From Clostridia bacterium (GTDB lineage Bacteria > Bacillota > Clostridia > RGIG6154), in assembly GCA_045648505.1 (NCBI GenBank), contig JAZROD010000044.1:80995-144994 (forward strand): a DNA stretch of 64,000 nt, written 5' to 3'. This document shows positions 28,562-61,449 of the stretch, one piece after another (within the stretch, counting starts at the first letter, position 1; the number at the start of each line of letters is the position of its first letter). A program made the position numbers and the translations under genes. The notes below the pieces were generated by a model. It saw only the letters and a program-made list of their open reading frames with translations. It did no database searches and was not told the origin of the DNA.

Positions 28562-28852
28562 TTTATATTTCTTGCATTTTCTATACCTTTGTGATAAAAT
28601 GATATATTGTTCAGGAGTCGGAATTTATCTAAGTAAATTGCCCTTAGGGCATGAATTGAAATCAGTGATTTCATAAATTGGCGTCACCATGAATTGAGGT
28701 CTGCGACCTCATGAATGAATAAAAATCGCAAAGCGATTTTATCCTTAATGCAAACTTGTTTGCAATTCATGTTGCGAATAGCATCAATTTATTGAGCGAA
28801 AGCGAAAATTCATAACAACGAAGTTGTTAATTATTTTTAAGAAGCATATAAA
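28562..28852 (+). repeat. hairpin-array element family 1, copy 1 (promoter plus about 260-bp repeat, followed by terminator)
   Basis: TTGCAT-17-TGaTAAAAT at 28562-28590. The body has short palindromes (GCCCttaGGGC, GAAATCAgTGATTTC, GAGGTCtgcGACCTC, AAAATCGCaaaGCGATTTT, CAAACttGTTTG) joined by ATGAATT linkers. About 96% identical to the copy at 31216-31497. Confidence 0.7.
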
Positions 28853-28888
28853 TAAAGCAGACAGAAATACTGTCTGCTTTATTTATTA
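28850..28888. terminator. bidirectional intrinsic terminator
   Basis: AAAGCAGACAGaaatacTGTCTGCTTT flanked by A/T runs; closes both copy 1 (+) and membrane gene A (-). Confidence 0.6.
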
Positions 28889-30880: not shown

Positions 30881-30993
30881 AATTACCCTCCGTCTGCGTA
30901 TTACTTTTGTATTACATTCACACATCTTATTGTATCATATAAAACCATTTTATGTCAAGATATAATTTATTACATAATGGAAGGTGTGATAAT

Positions 30994-31176
30994 ATGTTAA
31001 ATGAACCATTAAAAATTAAAAAACGCGGAGAAGATGGAACTAAAATCATTTCTTTAAGAATACGAGAAGACACTCTTGCAGAACTAGATAGACTTTCTAA
31101 CGAATGTAATTATTCACGAAATGAACTTATAAATCTCATAATTAACCACGGAATTAAAAACATTATTATAGAATAA
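30994..31176 (+). CDS. ribbon-helix-helix (CopG/Arc/MetJ-like) DNA-binding protein
   Basis: GGAAGGTG RBS. Encodes MLNEPLKIKKRGEDGTKIISLRIREDTLAELDRLSNECNYSRNELINLIINHG (beta-strand, helix, helix pattern). Divergent from the two membrane genes. Confidence 0.55.
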   Translation: MLNEPLKIKKRGEDGTKIISLRIREDTLAELDRLSNECNYSRNELINLIINHGIKNIIIE

Positions 31177-31215
31177 TTACACAAAGGGCAGTGTTTAAGG
31201 CTGTCCTTTTTTTAC

Positions 31216-31497
31216 TTGCATTTCATATTTATATATGATAAAATATTGTATTATTCAGGAGACGGAATTTATCTAAGTGAACTGCCCTTAGGGCATGAAT
31301 TGAAATCAGTGATTTCATGAATTGGTTTCACCATGAATTGAGGTCTGCGACCTCATGAATGAATAAAAATCGCAAAGCGATTTTATCCTTAATGCAAACT
31401 TGTTTGCAATTCATGTTGCGAATAGCATCAATTTATTGAGCAAAAGCGAAAATTCATAACAACGGAGTTGTTAATTCATTTTATGAAAGGAGTACAT
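31216..31497 (+). repeat. hairpin-array element family 1, copy 2 (promoter plus repeat, directly abutting the yggS RBS)
   Basis: TTGCAT-17-TGaTAAAAT at 31216-31244. Body about 96% identical to copy 1 (about 8 mismatches in about 225 nt). Ends ...AATTCATAACAACGGAGTTGTTAATTCATTTTATGAAAGGAG, then TTG of yggS. Confidence 0.7.
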
Positions 31498-31500
31498 AGT

Positions 31501-32142
31501 TTGAGTATAAAAAGTAATCTTGAAAAGATAAAAAGCACTTTAAACAACGATACTACACTTGTTTGCGTAAGTAAGTATCACACCGAAGAGGAAATTATGG
31601 AGGCTTACAATGAGGGCGTTCGTGATTTTGGTGAAAACAAGGTGCAGGATATGGTTAAAAAGGCGGAAAATCTGCCAAAGGATATAAGATGGCATCTTAT
31701 CGGACACTTGCAGACAAACAAGGTTAAATATATTGTGGGCAAAACCCATCTTGTGCAGTCGGTTGACAGAATTGAACTTGCAGAAGAGCTTAACAAAAGA
31801 TTTGAAAAAGAAAATCTGGTTTGCGACTGTTTAATACAGATAAATTCAACGGGCATTGATTCAAGATTCGGTTGCACACCTGAAACTGCAACAGAATTTG
31901 CAGAAAAATTAAGAGAATTCAAAAGCCTTAATGTTAAGGGAATTATGGGTATGGCTCCAATCTGCGATGACCCTACCGAAAACTTTAAGCTTTTAAAAGA
32001 TATTTATGAAAATTTAAAAGAAAAAGGTATGCTAAACGGTAACATACTCTCTATGGGTATGAGTGATGACTACGAATTTGCACTTAAGTGCGGAAGTAAT
32101 ATGGTAAGAATAGGAAGTAAAATATTCAAGGATGCTGAATAA
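31501..32142 (+). CDS. yggS: YggS-family pyridoxal-phosphate-binding protein (PLP homeostasis; YlmE-like)
   Basis: LSIKSNLEKIK...VCVSKYHTEEEI...GENKVQ...HLIGHLQTNK is the COG0325 signature. TTG start with AAAGGAG RBS preferred; ATG at 31483 is possible. Confidence 0.75.
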   Translation: MSIKSNLEKIKSTLNNDTTLVCVSKYHTEEEIMEAYNEGVRDFGENKVQDMVKKAENLPKDIRWHLIGHLQTNKVKYIVGKTHLVQSVDRIELAEELNKRFEKENLVCDCLIQINSTGIDSRFGCTPETATEFAEKLREFKSLNVKGIMGMAPICDDPTENFKLLKDIYENLKEKGMLNGNILSMGMSDDYEFALKCGSNMVRIGSKIFKDAE

Positions 32143-33460: not shown

Positions 33461-34555
33461 ATGACAAAAATTGATATTTTTTCAGGCTTTTTAGGTGCAG
33501 GAAAAACTACACTTATCAAAAAACTTATTAACGATTCATTCAAAGGCGAAAAGCTTGTTTTGATTGAAAACGAATTTGGCGAAATCGGTATTGACGGTGG
33601 ATTTTTAAAAGAAGCAGGTATTGAAATAACTGAAATGAATTCAGGTTGTATCTGTTGCTCACTTGTGGGTGATTTCAGTAAAGCTCTTGCTGAAGTTCTT
33701 GAAAAATTCACACCTGACAGAATTTTAATCGAACCATCAGGGGTTGGAAAATTAAGTGATGTTAAAAAGGCAGTTGAAGGTATTGAAGGTGCAAAAATCA
33801 ACAGTGCAACTGCAGTTGTTGACGCCACAAAGTGCAAAATGTATATGAAAAACTTCGGCGAATTTTTCAATGACCAGATTGAAAATGCATCAACCATTAT
33901 TTTAAGCCACGCAGACAAAGCATCAGAAGAAAAAATTAAAGAATGTATTCATCTTATAAAAGAACATAATGAAAAAGCCGTTCTTGTTACAACTCCTTTT
34001 ATGGAGCTTGACGGCAAGGTGCTTAAAGATGCTATTGAAAACACATCAACTCTTGAAAAAGAAATGGAAGAACTTGAGCATCATCACCACCATCACGGTC
34101 ACGATTGCCATTGTCACGAGCATGAACACGAGCATCATCACCACCATGATGAAGAATGTACTTGTGGTTGCCATGAACACGAACATCACCACCACGATGA
34201 ATGCGATTGTGGTTGTCATGAACATCATCACGAACACGGTGAAGAATGCTCCTGCGGATGTGGCGGACATCATCACCACCACGCTGATGAAGTTTTCACA
34301 AGCGTTGGTATTGAAACTGCAAAGAAATTCACTAAAGAAGAAATGGAAAGTATTCTCGAAAAACTTTCAAAAGAATCTGAATACGGACTTGTGCTTCGTG
34401 CAAAGGGTATTGTTGCCGGTGAAGAAGATTGGATTCACTTTGACTATGTTCCCGGCGAAGCAGATGTTCGATTCGGCTCAAAAGATGTAATCGGCAGAAT
34501 TTGTGTTATCGGTTCTGAAATTAACAAAGAAAAAATTCAAAAATTATTTGACTGA
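33461..34555 (+). CDS. COG0523 (CobW/ZigA-type) G3E GTPase metallochaperone with long His/Cys-rich insertion
   Basis: Walker A GFLGAGKTTLI, CxCC motif GCICCS, and a 75-aa insert HHHHHHGHDCHCHEHEHEHHHHHDEECTCGCHEHEHHHHDECDCGCHEHHHEHGEECSCGCGGHHHHH. Confidence 0.8.
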   Translation: MTKIDIFSGFLGAGKTTLIKKLINDSFKGEKLVLIENEFGEIGIDGGFLKEAGIEITEMNSGCICCSLVGDFSKALAEVLEKFTPDRILIEPSGVGKLSDVKKAVEGIEGAKINSATAVVDATKCKMYMKNFGEFFNDQIENASTIILSHADKASEEKIKECIHLIKEHNEKAVLVTTPFMELDGKVLKDAIENTSTLEKEMEELEHHHHHHGHDCHCHEHEHEHHHHHDEECTCGCHEHEHHHHDECDCGCHEHHHEHGEECSCGCGGHHHHHADEVFTSVGIETAKKFTKEEMESILEKLSKESEYGLVLRAKGIVAGEEDWIHFDYVPGEADVRFGSKDVIGRICVIGSEINKEKIQKLFD

Positions 34556-58443: not shown

Positions 58444-58901
58444 GAATAGGACACGGAATTGATTTTCACAGACTTGTGGAAGGAAGAGACCTTTACCTTG
58501 GCGGTGTAAAGATTTCCTATGAAAAAGGTCTTTTAGGTCACTCGGATGCAGATGTTCTTCTTCACGCAATCTGCGATGCACTCCTTGGTGCGGCGGCAAA
58601 AAGGGATATTGGTTATCACTTCCCTGACAGTGATGCAAAGTTTAAAGGTATTTCAAGCCTTAAGCTTTTAGAACTTACAAAAGAAATCATCTTGCCTTTA
58701 AAGGTTGTAAATATTGATGCAACAGTGATTGCACAGGCACCAAAGCTTATGCCACACATTGAAAAAATGAGAGAAAATGTTGCAAAAGCACTTGATACAG
58801 ATATAAATAATATTAACATAAAAGCTACGACATCAGAGCATATGGGCTACTGCGGAAGCGGTGAAGGAATGGAAGCCCACGCTGTTTGTATTGTAGATTA
58901 G
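58440..58901 (+). CDS. ispF: 2-C-methyl-D-erythritol 2,4-cyclodiphosphate synthase
   Basis: [12 protein letters not shown]...[19 protein letters not shown]. Confidence 0.85.
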
Positions 58902-58912
58902 GAGGAAACACA

Positions 58913-60352
58913 ATGGCTAAAGATTCAAAAAAATTCGTTGAAGATATTACATCTATGGATGTAGACTTCGCAAAATGGTACACAGATATTGTTAAAAAAG
59001 CAGAACTTGTTGATTATTCAAGAGTTCGCGGTTGTATGATTATCAAGCCTTATGGCTATGCTATCTGGGAAAACATCCAGAAAACACTTGATAAAATGTT
59101 CAAGGATTTAGGACACGAAAATGTTTATATGCCTATGTTCATCCCTGAAAGCTTACTCCAGAAGGAAAAAGACCATGTTGAAGGCTTTGCTCCTGAAGTT
59201 GCCTGGGTAACACACGGTGGTCTTGAACCATTAACAGAAAGACTTTGCGTTCGTCCTACATCAGAAACACTTTTCTGCGACCACTATAAAGATATTATTC
59301 ATTCATACAGAGACCTTCCAAAGCTCTACAATCAGTGGTGTAGCGTTGTAAGATGGGAAAAAACAACAAGACCTTTCTTAAGAAGCCTTGAATTCTTATG
59401 GCAGGAAGGCCACACAGCCCACGCAACTGCAGAAGAAGCTCAGGAAGAAACAATCAGAATGTTAAATGTTTACGCAGATTTCTGTGAAAACGTTTTAGCT
59501 ATGCCTGTTGTTAAAGGTCAGAAAACAGACAAAGAAAAATTCGCAGGTGCAGAACAGACATATACAATCGAAGCTTTAATGCACAGTGGTATTGCTCTTC
59601 AGTCAGGTACATCACACAACTTTGGTGACGGCTTTGCAAAAGCATTTGAAATTCAGTTTGCAGATAAAGACAATCAGCTTAAATATGTTCATCAGACATC
59701 ATGGGGTGTTACAACAAGACTTATTGGTGCAATCATTATGGTTCACGGTGATGATAACGGACTTGTTCTCCCACCAAGAATTGCACCAACTCAGGTTATG
59801 ATTATTCCAATCGCACAGCATAAAGAAGGCGTTTTAGATAAAGCAGACGAGCTTTATAACACTCTTAAAGACACAGTAAGAGTTAAAGTTGATGCATCTG
59901 ACAAGAGCCCTGGATTTAAGTTCAGCGAACAGGAAATGAGAGGTATTCCACTCAGAATTGAAATCGGACCTAAAGACATTGAAAACAATCAGGCAGTTAT
60001 TGCAAGAAGAGATAACGGTGAAAAGGTTGTTGTATCTCTTGACAACATAAAAGAAGAAGTTGAAAAACTTTTAGATGTGGTTCAGAATGCAATGCTTGAA
60101 AAAGCAAGAGCACACAGAGAAGAAAGAACCTACAAAATGACCGACATAGACGAAATGAAGAAACAGCTTGACGAAAACCCGGGCTTCATCAAAGCTATGT
60201 GGTGCGGTGAGCAGGAATGCGAACTTAAAATTAAAGAACTTACAGGCGCAACCTCAAGATGTATCCCATTTGAGCAGGAAGAAATTTCAGATAAATGTAT
60301 CTGCTGCGGAAAGAAAGCAACAAAGATGGTTTACTGGGGAAAAGCATATTAA
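58913..60352 (+). CDS. proS: proline--tRNA ligase (class II, archaeal/eukaryotic type with C-terminal zinc ribbon)
   Basis: AGGAGG RBS before MAKDSKK. Class II motifs and C-terminal [18 protein letters not shown]. Confidence 0.85.
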
Positions 60353-60380
60353 AAAATGCCCTTCGGGGCATTTTTTAATA
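60353..60380 (+). terminator. intrinsic terminator after proS
   Basis: AAAATGCCCTTCGGGGCATTTT followed by tt. Confidence 0.6.
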
Positions 60381-60385
60381 AATGA

Positions 60386-60562
60386 AGCATTCTTTCAGAA
60401 TATGAAGTCGCTTCGCTTATGAAGTGCCTTCGCCATGATGCGTTGCTTCGCAACATTCTTTTGAATGCTTCGCATCATAAACGAGCAAAGCAAGTTTGCT
60501 TCATGCAGGCTTTGCCTGTACTTCATATCGGCAACGCCGATGCTTCATAACAACATTAAGAG
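60386..60562 (+). repeat. hairpin-array element family 2, copy 1 (upstream of the four-helix-bundle gene)
   Basis: Left half has TTATGAAG linkers; right half has GCTTCAT linkers joining GTTGCttcGCAAC, ATGCttcGCAT, CAGGCtttGCCTG and ATCGGCaaCGCCGAT. Ends GCTTCATAACAAC, then RBS and start codon. Confidence 0.6.
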
Positions 60563-60571
60563 GTGATAAAA

Positions 60572-60931
60572 ATGAAAAACGACAAACTTTCAAATCTATC
60601 TATGGATTTTTCTATTAAGATAATTAATTTAGTAAAACATCTTAAAAGCAACAAAGAAACACTTATTTCAAACCAAATAGGCAGAAGCGGAACTTCAATA
60701 GGAGCAAATATTCGTGAAGCTCAATACGCACAAAGCAGAAATGATTTTATTTCTAAACTTCAAATCTCACTTAAAGAAGCAAACGAAACCGACTATTGGC
60801 TTGAATTGTTATACAAAACAAACTACATAACTGAAAATGTATACAAGGACTACACATCTCTCTGCACAGAAATAAGAGTTACTCTTATTGCATCAATAAA
60901 AACAGCCAAACAAAACGCAGAAAGTAAGTGA
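60572..60931 (+). CDS. four-helix-bundle protein (23S rRNA intervening-sequence protein / DGR Avd-like family)
   Basis: QIGRSGTSIGANIREAQYAQSRNDFISKLQISLKEANETDYWLELL matches the TIGR02436-type four-helix-bundle signature. ATG at 60572 after an AAGAGG RBS; track coordinate 60563 is a GTG. Confidence 0.6.
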   Translation: MKNDKLSNLSMDFSIKIINLVKHLKSNKETLISNQIGRSGTSIGANIREAQYAQSRNDFISKLQISLKEANETDYWLELLYKTNYITENVYKDYTSLCTEIRVTLIASIKTAKQNAESK

Positions 60932-60954
60932 AGTTTTTCTGCGGAATATAAATT

Positions 60955-61079
60955 CAATCAAACGCAAGGCGTTTGTACCTTAATAGAACCCACAAGGTTC
61001 GCTTCATAGACGAGCATAGCGAGTCTGCTTCATACAGGCTTTGCCTGTGCTTCATATTTCGCAAAGCGAAATTCTTCAT
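60955..61079 (+). repeat. hairpin-array element family 2, copy 2 (downstream of the four-helix-bundle gene)
   Basis: AAACGCaagGCGTTT, AACCcacaaGGTT, then CGCTTCAT, GCTTCAT-CAGGCtttGCCTG-GCTTCAT-ATTTCGCaaaGCGAAAT-TCTTCAT. The 32-nt core matches copy 1 at 30 of 32 positions. Confidence 0.6.
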
Positions 61080-61112
61080 AAAAAAGACTTGCAATTTGCA
61101 AGTCTTTTTCTT
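61079..61112. terminator. bidirectional intrinsic terminator
   Basis: aaaaaAGACTTGCAAtttGCAAGTCTttttt. Confidence 0.6.
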
Positions 61113-61449
61113 ATTGTTTAGTTTTTCCACAAGCACAGGTACCTGTGTAGCTATTGTTTACTCTTCCGCATTCATCGCAAACCCATCCGTCTTTAACATT
61201 TTTAGGGTCGTTTTTGCTGTATTTATGGTCGGTTTCTATAAGCTTGCATTTTATGTACTGTATATCATCCGCCATATCAAGAAACGCAAAAATAAAACCT
61301 GCATAAAACAAAGTAACTGCAATACCAACAATCAAATAGAGTATTCCTGCTATAACACTCTCACCAAACATGGCAAAACTTCCAAGTACCACAAGCAAAA
61401 TCGCAAGAACAAGCACAACAATACTTGCTTTTCTTAACATTTCAATCAT
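61111..61449 (-). CDS. small membrane protein with C-terminal zinc-ribbon (CxxC...CxC)
   Basis: Two TM helices, then WVCDECGRVNNSYTGTCACGK. Confidence 0.45.
   Translation of the reverse strand: MIEMLRKASIVVLVLAILLVVLGSFAMFGESVIAGILYLIVGIAVTLFYAGFIFAFLDMADDIQYIKCKLIETDHKYSKNDPKNVKDGWVCDECGRVNNSYTGTCACGKTKQ

Follow-up and report, generated by a model that had tools for sequence, protein, structure and literature searches.

A mirror-symmetric hairpin-array element related to the Gut-1 motif accompanies genes of the 23S rRNA intervening-sequence protein family

The Gut-1 motif (RF01706) was reported in 2010, in a single sentence and from human-gut sequences only, as three short covarying hairpins with an invariant heptamer, RUGAAAU or RUGAUAU (Weinberg et al. 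2010, PMC2864571); no later work on it was found in the literature searched. A second orphan is the very large family of four-helix-bundle (4HB) proteins known from intervening sequences (IVSs) in 23S rRNA genes, for which there are crystal structures and no known function. The S23p-encoding IVS of Leptospira and Coxiella consists of an open reading frame (ORF) enclosed by inverted repeats that pair with each other, is regarded as a selfish element, and is excised by RNase III (PMC4990558). Avd, the closest functionally studied relative of the 4HB fold, sits in a ribonucleoprotein (RNP; PDB 8UB7). Here we describe an element in which the Gut-1 motif and the 4HB family turn out to be parts of one object, so that the two can be studied together. 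We analyzed 64,000 nt of a Clostridia bacterium genome with 36% G+C (contig JAZROD010000044.1, positions 80,995 to 144,994; hereafter the window, to which all positions refer unless another locus is named), in which an initial annotation had noted arrays of short palindromes on both sides of a 4HB gene.

Our data show a conserved cassette made of mirror-image hairpin arrays and a 4HB gene, whose left and right linkers switch in concert, which is present in multiple copies and across phyla, and which gains and loses units at its linkers. The feature in the window is real and more general than first proposed: it is a variant of a known orphan motif class within an IVS-like cassette that carries the 4HB family. 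Half of the element is a divergent relative of the orphan Gut-1 RNA motif, and the element almost always accompanies the 4HB family. The mirror half, the closing stem, the linker variants, the linkage to tRNA genes and the coupling to 4HB genes all appear undescribed in the literature searched. Together they offer a framework for the origin and spread of small ORF-bearing intervening sequences.

Two copies of a bipartite element around the 4HB gene

The repeats flanking the 4HB gene are two copies of a bipartite hairpin-array element of ~170 nt, a complete copy A at 60382-60554 and a copy B at 60928-61080 with a decayed left half (Table 1). Each half contains three to four short hairpins of variable sequence separated by an invariant linker, ATGAAG in the left half and its complement CTTCAT in the right, and the innermost linkers of copy A (ATGATGC and GCATCAT) are complementary like the remaining pairs. 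The initial annotation had described palindromes joined by (G)CTTCAT linkers on both flanks, with inverse linkers in the left part of the first copy and forward linkers in the right. We found that these arrays are present, fold and are not due to chance, and that copy A indeed carries three ATGAAG linkers and one ATGATGC, then GCATCAT, GCTTCAT, ACTTCAT and GCTTCAT. That description of the flanks was accurate overall, missing the degenerate left half of copy B, and its conserved core of 30 in 32 positions was counted correctly, with the upstream copy placed one base too far right (it lies at 60497-60528).

A terminator overlaps the proS stop codon, and the array of copy A begins 2 nt beyond it. 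The left half of copy A is closed by P1, a 9-bp long-range stem in which GAAGCATTC (60384-60392) pairs with GAATGCTTC (60463-60471); P1 is also the closing stem of the minimum-energy fold of this copy on both strands. In copy B P1 is degenerate, and the first left linker, GTGAAG at 60928-60933, encloses the TGA stop of the 4HB gene; it is an intact ATGAAG in the closest relative, locus L001. The two copies share a 60-nt direct repeat with 88% identity (60469-60528 and 60998-61057). At five of the seven differences the upstream repeat has an adenine, which superficially resembles a diversity-generating retroelement (DGR); this bias is probably chance, since both copies are non-coding and reverse transcriptase is absent nearby. 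We rejected a DGR on the same grounds, and the system differs accordingly from Avd with its DGR RNA (PDB 4DWL, 8UB7): no reverse transcriptase was found among the neighboring genes, there is no coding target repeat, and both repeats are intergenic.

The initial annotation had proposed comparing the frequency of the pattern with that in shuffled sequence. The pattern CTTCAT-N9-24-CTTCAT occurs seven times in 64 kb, all within 60382-61079, against 0.32 expected, and 0 of 100 shuffles matched this. A de novo scan of the window for any 6-mer present three times with two different palindromic spacers returned these arrays only. Fold z-scores were -5.7 and -4.5, the former for the RNA fold of the window element. 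We also built a covariance model from the right domains of 26 foreign loci, using a hand-derived structure (the RNAalifold structure gave 3 pairs only). This model matches 61001-61080 (45.2 bits, E 2.4e-7) and 60472-60549 (42.6 bits, E 8e-7), as well as 60381-60441 on the minus strand (23.7 bits, E 0.005), and beyond these three domains it finds nothing else in the window with E < 1. Left domains of the ATGAAG type were too heterogeneous to align into a covariance model.

Spread, coupling to the 4HB family and genomic setting

The protein encoded between the two copies matches PF05635 (E 8e-28) and TIGR02436 (E 5e-31) and is 56% identical to BT_0352 (PDB 2RLD, an entry with five chains); the earlier label "Avd-like" is correct for the fold. 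About 8000 homologues are found at E < 1e-10, many of them on contigs of 0.5-1.5 kb. Among 81 related 4HB loci retrieved via the protein from gut and rumen metagenomes, 74 have an array no more than 320 nt upstream of the gene. Three linker pairs occur in these 74, namely GTGAAG/CTTCAC (38 loci), ATGAAG/CTTCAT (31) and ATGATG/CATCAT (5), and the left and right linkers of a pair change in step. The gene is placed between the two domains in some lineages: in the ATGATG/CATCAT type, the left array is upstream, the right array downstream and the ORF between them. Linker type tracks the 4HB protein tree, with 5 Fitch changes; 1000 permutations gave 21.8 on average and never fewer than 15. The coupling is strong, extending to more than 90% of the sampled 4HB loci and to both Clostridia and Bacteroidaceae. 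Locus L002, from a G+C-rich organism with a 74% identical protein, has the same layout with wholly different hairpins: a tRNA gene, a terminator, four ATGAAG linkers with hairpins, four GCTTCAT linkers with hairpins, a TTGAAA-17-TATACT promoter and the gene.

We next consider arrays found by pattern instead of by protein. A scan of one genome per species returned at least 120 loci, roughly half of them coding repeats, and we judged 33 to be true hairpin arrays. Among the matches listed, these 33 come from gut and rumen metagenome-assembled genomes (MAGs) of Clostridia, Lentisphaeria/Victivallaceae and Kiritimatiellia, several MAGs hold at least two to three loci, and the recurrent neighbors are the 4HB gene (6/33) and, in Lentisphaeria/Victivallaceae, a prepilin-like gene (3/33). 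Recurrence outside the window, which the initial annotation had anticipated, is massive, with several copies per genome; arrays without an adjacent 4HB gene also occur, some of them far from any. Repeats without hairpin spacers, about half of the matches in the genome scan together with those in the filtered viral scan, were mostly coding and were set aside as tandem-repeat noise. Nine loci on viral contigs passed a weak palindrome filter; they are tandem and mostly coding, and none has the mirror architecture. The 4HB protein has no match in PADLOC or PHROGs, and an origin in phages or defense islands finds no support in PADLOC, PHROGs or the viral contigs.

Four Lentisphaeria/Victivallaceae loci (L049, L076, L080 and L113) have CTTCAT arrays within the 5' region of prepilin-type (FTLIELLV...) genes. 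There the arrays adjoin a palindrome formed by the coding sequence itself, and in L113 the FTLIELL-coding stretch is duplicated, which suggests insertion at pre-existing hairpins.

Nowhere in the window does an Rfam family attain its gathering score, and no rRNA gene was found there. Gut-1 matches 60347-60413 with 29.1 bits (E 0.0019 in a 900-nt search), below its gathering threshold of 50; across the left domains of the window, L001, L267 and L249 the Gut-1 scores are 29-33 bits. At L272, positions 2510-2586 score 61.9 bits, above the threshold, and the mirror domain scores 40.6 bits on the other strand. The Gut-1 seed rows run from tRNA to terminator, left domain, closing stem and right domain, and the window likewise has a terminator followed by a left and then a right domain. 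These scores and the common layout indicate that the left half of the element is a divergent relative of Gut-1. The window has the corresponding architecture, four linkers with hairpins between them, but its linker AUGAAG(C) shares only RUGAA with the consensus heptamer. The published motif corresponds to one half of the element, without mention of a mirror domain, a 4HB gene or tRNA linkage (PMC2864571), and the present family also occurs in rumen and hindgut Clostridia, Lentisphaeria and Kiritimatiellia.

The Gut-1 match at L272 lies in a second complete element (2470-2690) with ATGATAT/ATATCAT linkers, 650 nt past the 4HB gene. The terminator ahead of this second element is the same as that ahead of a GTGAAG-type element 1.2 kb upstream. 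The Gut-1 seed contig BAAZ01000130.1 has four matches exactly 240 nt apart (PMC2864571, supplementary file 95), indicating that whole elements can occur in tandem.

With the 23S rRNA IVS the cassette shares a PF05635 ORF, terminal inverted repeats able to pair, an association with stable-RNA genes, and the character of an element regarded as selfish and horizontally spread. IVS-like enclosure of the ORF is seen in the ATGATG-type Clostridia and in Bacteroidaceae. The window element, however, lies between proS and a convergent gene, outside any rRNA gene, whereas an IVS is inserted in helix 25 or 45 of the 23S rRNA; it consists of arrays of short units with interleaved hairpins instead of the single 28-bp stem of an IVS; and both domains of copy A are upstream of the ORF. 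The ORF in the window is flanked by CTTCAT linkers upstream and by only one or two decayed inverse linkers immediately downstream (60928-60955).

The Bacteroidaceae relatives of BT_0352 show a plainer form of the same arrangement. Their 4HB genes lie within operons, as in araD-4HB-araA and aminotransferase-4HB-DAHP synthase, and are bracketed by plain mirror arrays of an 8-mer, (A)ATTGACA four times upstream and TGTCAAT four times downstream (L329 1440-1500 and 1880-1925; L333 1470-1503 and 1910-1945; also L339 and L344). A four-copy array of Bacteroides has the unit AATTGACA. The two sides of L339 have changed in concert, to AATTGAGAATTGATAAT and its complement. In the operon mRNA, the upstream and downstream arrays could pair around the ORF as a perfect duplex of ~30 bp.

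Several loci show overlaps at stop codons. The stop codon of the 4HB gene is the TGA of an AAATGA in 17 of ~69 distinct 4HB loci (for example L245, L256, L269 and L305), and the ATG within that AAATGA is the start codon of an unrelated ORF, 50 aa or longer, that follows and encodes lipoproteins, membrane proteins or an endonuclease-like protein. The 4HB stop of the window and of L001 falls within the first linker of the next array, and at L302 the TGA stop of the upstream gene falls within the first ATGATG linker.

We found that most copies of the element are located directly behind the terminator of a tRNA or tmRNA gene. Of the 46 distinct 4HB loci with enough flanking sequence, at least 28 have the end of a same-strand tRNA or tmRNA gene no more than 120 nt upstream; at least 13 tRNA types plus tmRNA are represented, in every case transcribed toward the array. 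Among the 33 pattern-derived arrays, at least 9 likewise lie 31-45 nt from the end of a tRNA or tmRNA gene, which is again always transcribed toward the array. In relatives, the array begins 2-6 nt past the T-tract of a terminator. The apex of this terminator, TTTGTCTACCGACAAA, is conserved behind different tRNAs with variable lower stems (GTGAAG-type L062, L256, L267, L269, L273 and L285), which is unusual for intrinsic terminators and suggests that the hairpin belongs to the element. This shared apex, and the identical terminators ahead of the two different L272 elements at a distance of 1.2 kb, suggest that the element carries its terminator along. At L117 (1-135, from a Victivallaceae MAG), the N-terminal half of a 4HB gene (…NQIGRAGTCIGA) stops exactly at the 3' half of a terminator of the kind that normally precedes an array, so that the cassette there is rearranged or disrupted.

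Downstream of the last linker we observed either an abutting sigma-70 promoter (L002, L062, L083) or another gene's promoter, a ribosome-binding site (RBS) with no room for a promoter (the window, the L272 group, L091), or, elsewhere, a terminator. At many loci the array is preceded by a strong terminator and followed by the gene's own promoter. The window and several relatives leave no room for a promoter between array and RBS, so their arrays must be part of the gene's transcript. The initial annotation had suggested a mobile or recombination-prone promoter/leader module. As a promoter module this is not supported for the arrays around the 4HB gene: no sigma-70-like promoter was found in 60250-61250, and the arrays of many relatives precede a promoter of the gene's own.

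The proposed proneness to recombination, by contrast, is borne out at the linkers. In L001, which occupies the same locus with a 93% identical 4HB protein, the upstream right domain has been lost, and L257 has lost two left units compared with near-identical relatives. The right domain of L289 (1180-1490) has grown to ten CTTCAC units with near-identical tgcgccgaaaggcgtaa hairpins, which looks like a recent tandem amplification of a single unit. These loci show that recombination between linkers adds and removes units. Metagenome assemblies break at the arrays, next to tRNA genes, and an array may be misread as a regulatory leader. The terminator at proS differs from that of the window in relatives with 98% identical ProS. 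Two independent assemblies of a strain with such a ProS (L325 4479-4531 and L326 1653-1700) both end 15-20 nt past the proS terminator, suggesting that a repeat, possibly an array, begins at the assembly end.

Folding of the arrays and readings of their function

A perfect stem of at least 5 bp is present in 46% of 194 distinct inter-linker spacers, compared with 1% of shuffled ones. The spacers average 16 nt, with stems mostly of 4-7 bp and predominantly triloops, and their sequence differs from unit to unit, the linker alone being conserved. In aligned GTGAAG-type elements, RNAalifold identified 14 pairs with compensatory double changes. P1, in which linker 1 and the 5' arm of hairpin 1 pair with the center of the element, is 97% paired across 18 aligned elements, with three pairs altered on both sides, and its covariation score was reached in 0 of 500 shuffles. 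The many P1 variants in ATGAAG-type loci include GAAGTCGCCCC, GAAGCCGCCC and GAAGCGTGC, and an analogous covarying stem encloses the Lentisphaeria arrays. Taken with the hairpin data, P1 indicates that each domain consists of a closing stem and three to four hairpins, with the invariant linkers serving as junction strands. Selection acts on pairing in the hairpins and on linker identity, and our data show that hairpin and P1 sequences drift by compensatory changes and that the linker does not vary within an element.

Left and right domains are genuine mirror images of each other. The CTTCAY strand has GNA, AAA and GNRA loops, and the loops of the RTGAAG strand are the complements TTC, TGC and TTGC (Fisher p = 6e-20). 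The stems are nearly pure Watson-Crick, with 7 G:T and 6 A:C among ~780 pairs; we dropped the asymmetry between G:U and A:C as a criterion for RNA or DNA because non-Watson-Crick pairs are too few. A "ladder" of pairs between each left linker i and the corresponding right linker i' was also considered. The innermost ATGATGC/GCATCAT of the window fits this arrangement, but position-matched compensation was not seen in the mixed-linker loci L301, L319 and L296 or in the two family-1 copies described below, and the ladder was not adopted.

Our leading interpretation, which we hold tentatively, is that the cassette is an IVS-like selfish element whose mirror arrays are its cis-acting ends, working as folded single strands, with DNA as the favored strand type. 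The cassette comprises the terminator hairpin, a left domain with RTGAAG-type linkers and P1, a mirrored right domain with CTTCAY linkers, and the gene. About four short repeats between looped-out hairpins would be displayed to a trans-acting factor, for which the adjacent Avd-like 4HB protein is the best candidate; a 4HB oligomer that reads the linkers is a hypothesis suggested by the gene coupling and by the role of Avd in an RNP. The cassette would duplicate and lodge preferentially right behind the terminators of tRNA and tmRNA genes, and its arrays are remodeled by recombination at the linkers. Single-stranded or extruded DNA is favored over one RNA because the unit of CTTCAY and a G-N-A-loop hairpin lies on opposite strands in the two halves. 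The near absence of G:U, the dominance of triloops and the many arrays located between a terminator and a promoter also point to DNA.

A number of observations weigh against cis-acting DNA ends. Multibranched folding with invariant junction strands and a long-range stem that covaries is the classic signature of a functional RNA, and the left half is curated by Rfam as a candidate RNA (Gut-1). The top strand of P1 has 5 G:T compared with 1 A:C. The array must belong to the transcript of the gene in the window and several relatives, the Bacteroidaceae arrays inside operons are certainly transcribed, and family 1 is directly preceded by a promoter-like element and followed by a terminator. The constant orientation relative to the upstream tRNA gene is not expected of a randomly inserting DNA element. 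Relatives with 84-86% identical ProS lack the cassette and have other downstream genes, and no clean empty site or target-site duplication was found among the ProS relatives compared. Avd has been described as a pentamer, and four repeats per half do not match a ring of five subunits.

A structured RNA is a possible alternative that follows close behind the DNA reading. The element would then be a divergent non-coding RNA or leader of the Gut-1 class, made by read-through or from its own promoter, with two multibranched domains whose junctions pair together or bind the 4HB protein; it would form an RNP like that of Avd and DGR RNA, or provide a site of the RNase III type. The Gut-1 matches up to that of L272, the seed rows with an identical layout, the covariation of hairpins and P1, and the fold z-score of the window element are consistent with this, as are the lack of a promoter between array and RBS in the window, the promoter and terminator flanking family 1, the ~30-bp duplex around the ORF in Bacteroidaceae operons, and the RNP to which the Avd relative belongs. 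Against an RNA, the left loops on the sense strand would be UUC, UGC and UUGC, none of them a known RNA stability motif; their complements are GNA and GNRA, so that half of the element looks "antisense" in any single transcript. G:U makes up ~1% of the pairs in stems, an unusually small share for an RNA family, many arrays follow a strong terminator and precede the gene's promoter, and the mixed-linker loci L301 and L319 lack position-matched compensation between left and right.

A more specific form of the selfish-cassette reading, which we consider rather doubtful, would make PF05635/TIGR02436 proteins the dedicated partners of mirror arrays with about four repeats, the two together forming tiny autonomous selfish cassettes. 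An oligomer of the protein would bind the single-stranded linkers with the hairpins looped out and promote copying and insertion near or in stable-RNA genes and operons. If true, this would explain Gut-1, the multi-copy scatter of 4HB genes and the origin of ORF-bearing rRNA IVSs.

It is unlikely that the arrays are repeats of the repetitive extragenic palindrome (REP), bacterial interspersed mosaic element (BIME) or REPIN type, mobilized in trans by an HUH/Y1 transposase (REP-associated tyrosine transposase, RAYT, or IS200/IS605-like) with the 4HB gene as a passenger. For REPs, a biology at the level of single-stranded DNA, which the arrays resemble, and structural roles at operon 3' ends have been proposed. 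Like REPs and BIMEs, the arrays are extragenic, multi-copy mosaics of palindromic units with short conserved flanking or linker motifs in two orientations, and they adjoin terminators after operon ends; the Lentisphaeria arrays beside pre-existing palindromes in prepilin-like genes would also fit. However, the conserved part is the linker and not the hairpin, whose 5-7-bp stems are shorter than those of REPs and vary from unit to unit, and we did not find the 20-40-nt imperfect palindromes of conserved sequence with a 5' tetranucleotide that define REP units. Array orientation flips once, at the center, and does not alternate, and the partner is a 4HB protein, not a RAYT transposase. The tight coupling to the 4HB gene, congruent with the protein tree, would not be expected of a passenger. 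The initial annotation had suggested a hairpin-binding recombinase of the HUH/Y1 type; no transposase-like gene family recurs within 3 kb of the 33 arrays listed or in 80 4HB loci, which speaks against one encoded near the arrays. Pneumococcal BOX elements, which are modular with a variable number of units, and eukaryotic foldback transposons, whose ends are tandem short inverted repeats, bear a general resemblance to the array, with no sequence relationship known.

Even less probable is that the linkers are double-stranded operator or iteron sites through which a regulator, possibly the 4HB protein, controls the adjacent promoter, the palindromes being incidental. In L002, L062 and L083 the array directly adjoins the -35 box of the 4HB promoter, and about four plus four copies of an invariant linker would suit such sites. 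But linker spacing ranges broadly over 15-31 bp (modes 18, 20, 22 and 24-25), so there is no helical phasing; duplex binding would need neither compensatory palindromic spacers nor a covarying long-range stem; and arrays also lie far from any 4HB gene. Chance or simple local duplication, which two local copies in 64 kb at 36% G+C might have suggested, is effectively eliminated by the seven pattern occurrences against 0.32 expected, the z-scores, foreign-model E-values of ~1e-7 and more than 100 loci, with identical architecture and unrelated hairpin sequences also in G+C-rich organisms.

Family 1 and other features of the window

The initial annotation had recognized another repeat family, family 1, in the same window and had proposed that it shares an architecture with the arrays around the 4HB gene (family 2). 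The two copies of family 1 (Table 1) are ~270 nt long and roughly 95% identical in their core. They carry mirror ATGAAT/ATTCAT linkers, and their boundary motif CTAAGTG also occurs in GTGAAG-type elements elsewhere, in agreement with a shared architecture; families 1 and 2 most likely have one origin. Family 1 was not detected by the family-2 covariance model or by a Gut-1 E-value search of the copy-2 region, and is too diverged to be matched by either. The RNA fold of copy 2 has a z-score of -2.9. The TGaTAAAAT ahead of family 1 resembles an extended -10 promoter, and the earlier idea of a promoter/leader module fits family 1 at best, and not family 2.

Table 1 Features of the 64,000-nt window
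Feature	Position	Strand	Details
Family 1 copy 1	28571-28843	+	TGaTAAAAT, CTAAGTA, ATGAAT(T) linkers with hairpins, (A)ATTCAT linkers with hairpins; terminator 28848-28886
Family 1 copy 2	31215-31487	+	Same element, with CTAAGTG; runs into the RBS and TTG start of yggS
Terminator, bidirectional intrinsic	60347-60380		15-bp arms, A-tract and T-tract; from inverted repeat and terminator scan
Element A left domain	60382-60471	+	ATGAAG at 60382, 60402, 60419; ATGATGC 60435-60441; includes hairpin 60442-60454
Element A right domain	60472-60554	+	GCATCAT 60472, GCTTCAT 60498, ACTTCAT 60520, GCTTCAT 60542; hairpins 60479-60497, 60505-60519, 60527-60541; unpaired AACAAC at end
4HB gene	60572-60931	+	119 aa; RBS aagagg 60558-60563; 23S-rRNA-IVS-protein/Avd-like family
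Element B degenerate left domain	60928-61000	+	GTGAAG 60928-60933, then ATAAAT; hairpins 60959-60975, 60986-61000
Element B right domain	61001-61080	+	GCTTCAT 61001, 61027, 61049; TCTTCAT 61073; hairpins 61008-61026, 61034-61048, 61056-61072
Terminator, bidirectional	61081-61109		Common to convergent gene 61111-61449; from inverted repeat and terminator scan

One proposed link between the families did not survive comparison. Both had been said to deliver genes at the same TTCATAACAAC junction. This sequence occurs exactly three times (28809, 31453 and 60544), and the occurrences are not equivalent: in family 1 its AACAAC is the 5' arm of a further hairpin (aacaac-gga-gttgtt) that is followed by one more linker, and in family 2 it has no pairing partner. 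At the same position L001, the nearest relative, reads TTCATAGCAAAATTAAGAGG, so the junction is not conserved there. Beyond the common linker, the TTCATAACAAC match is a six-base coincidence.

The 4HB gene sits between proS (58886-60352) and the convergent gene at 61111-61449. Other neighboring genes are ispD and ispF, a membrane protein without family assignment, VanZ, an LRAT-like protein and an aldo-keto reductase. A stretch at 34060-34300 that is dense in ATGAA and CATCA words is histidine-rich coding sequence (HHHHxxHEH repeats in the ORF 33461-34555) and is unrelated to the arrays. The gene that follows family 1 copy 2, yggS (31468-32142), encodes a YggS-like protein of PF01168. The direct repeats of family 1 enclose 2.4 kb with two minus-strand membrane-protein genes, one with a DUF4234 domain, and a 74-aa ORF (30952-31176) whose product is ribbon-helix-helix-like.

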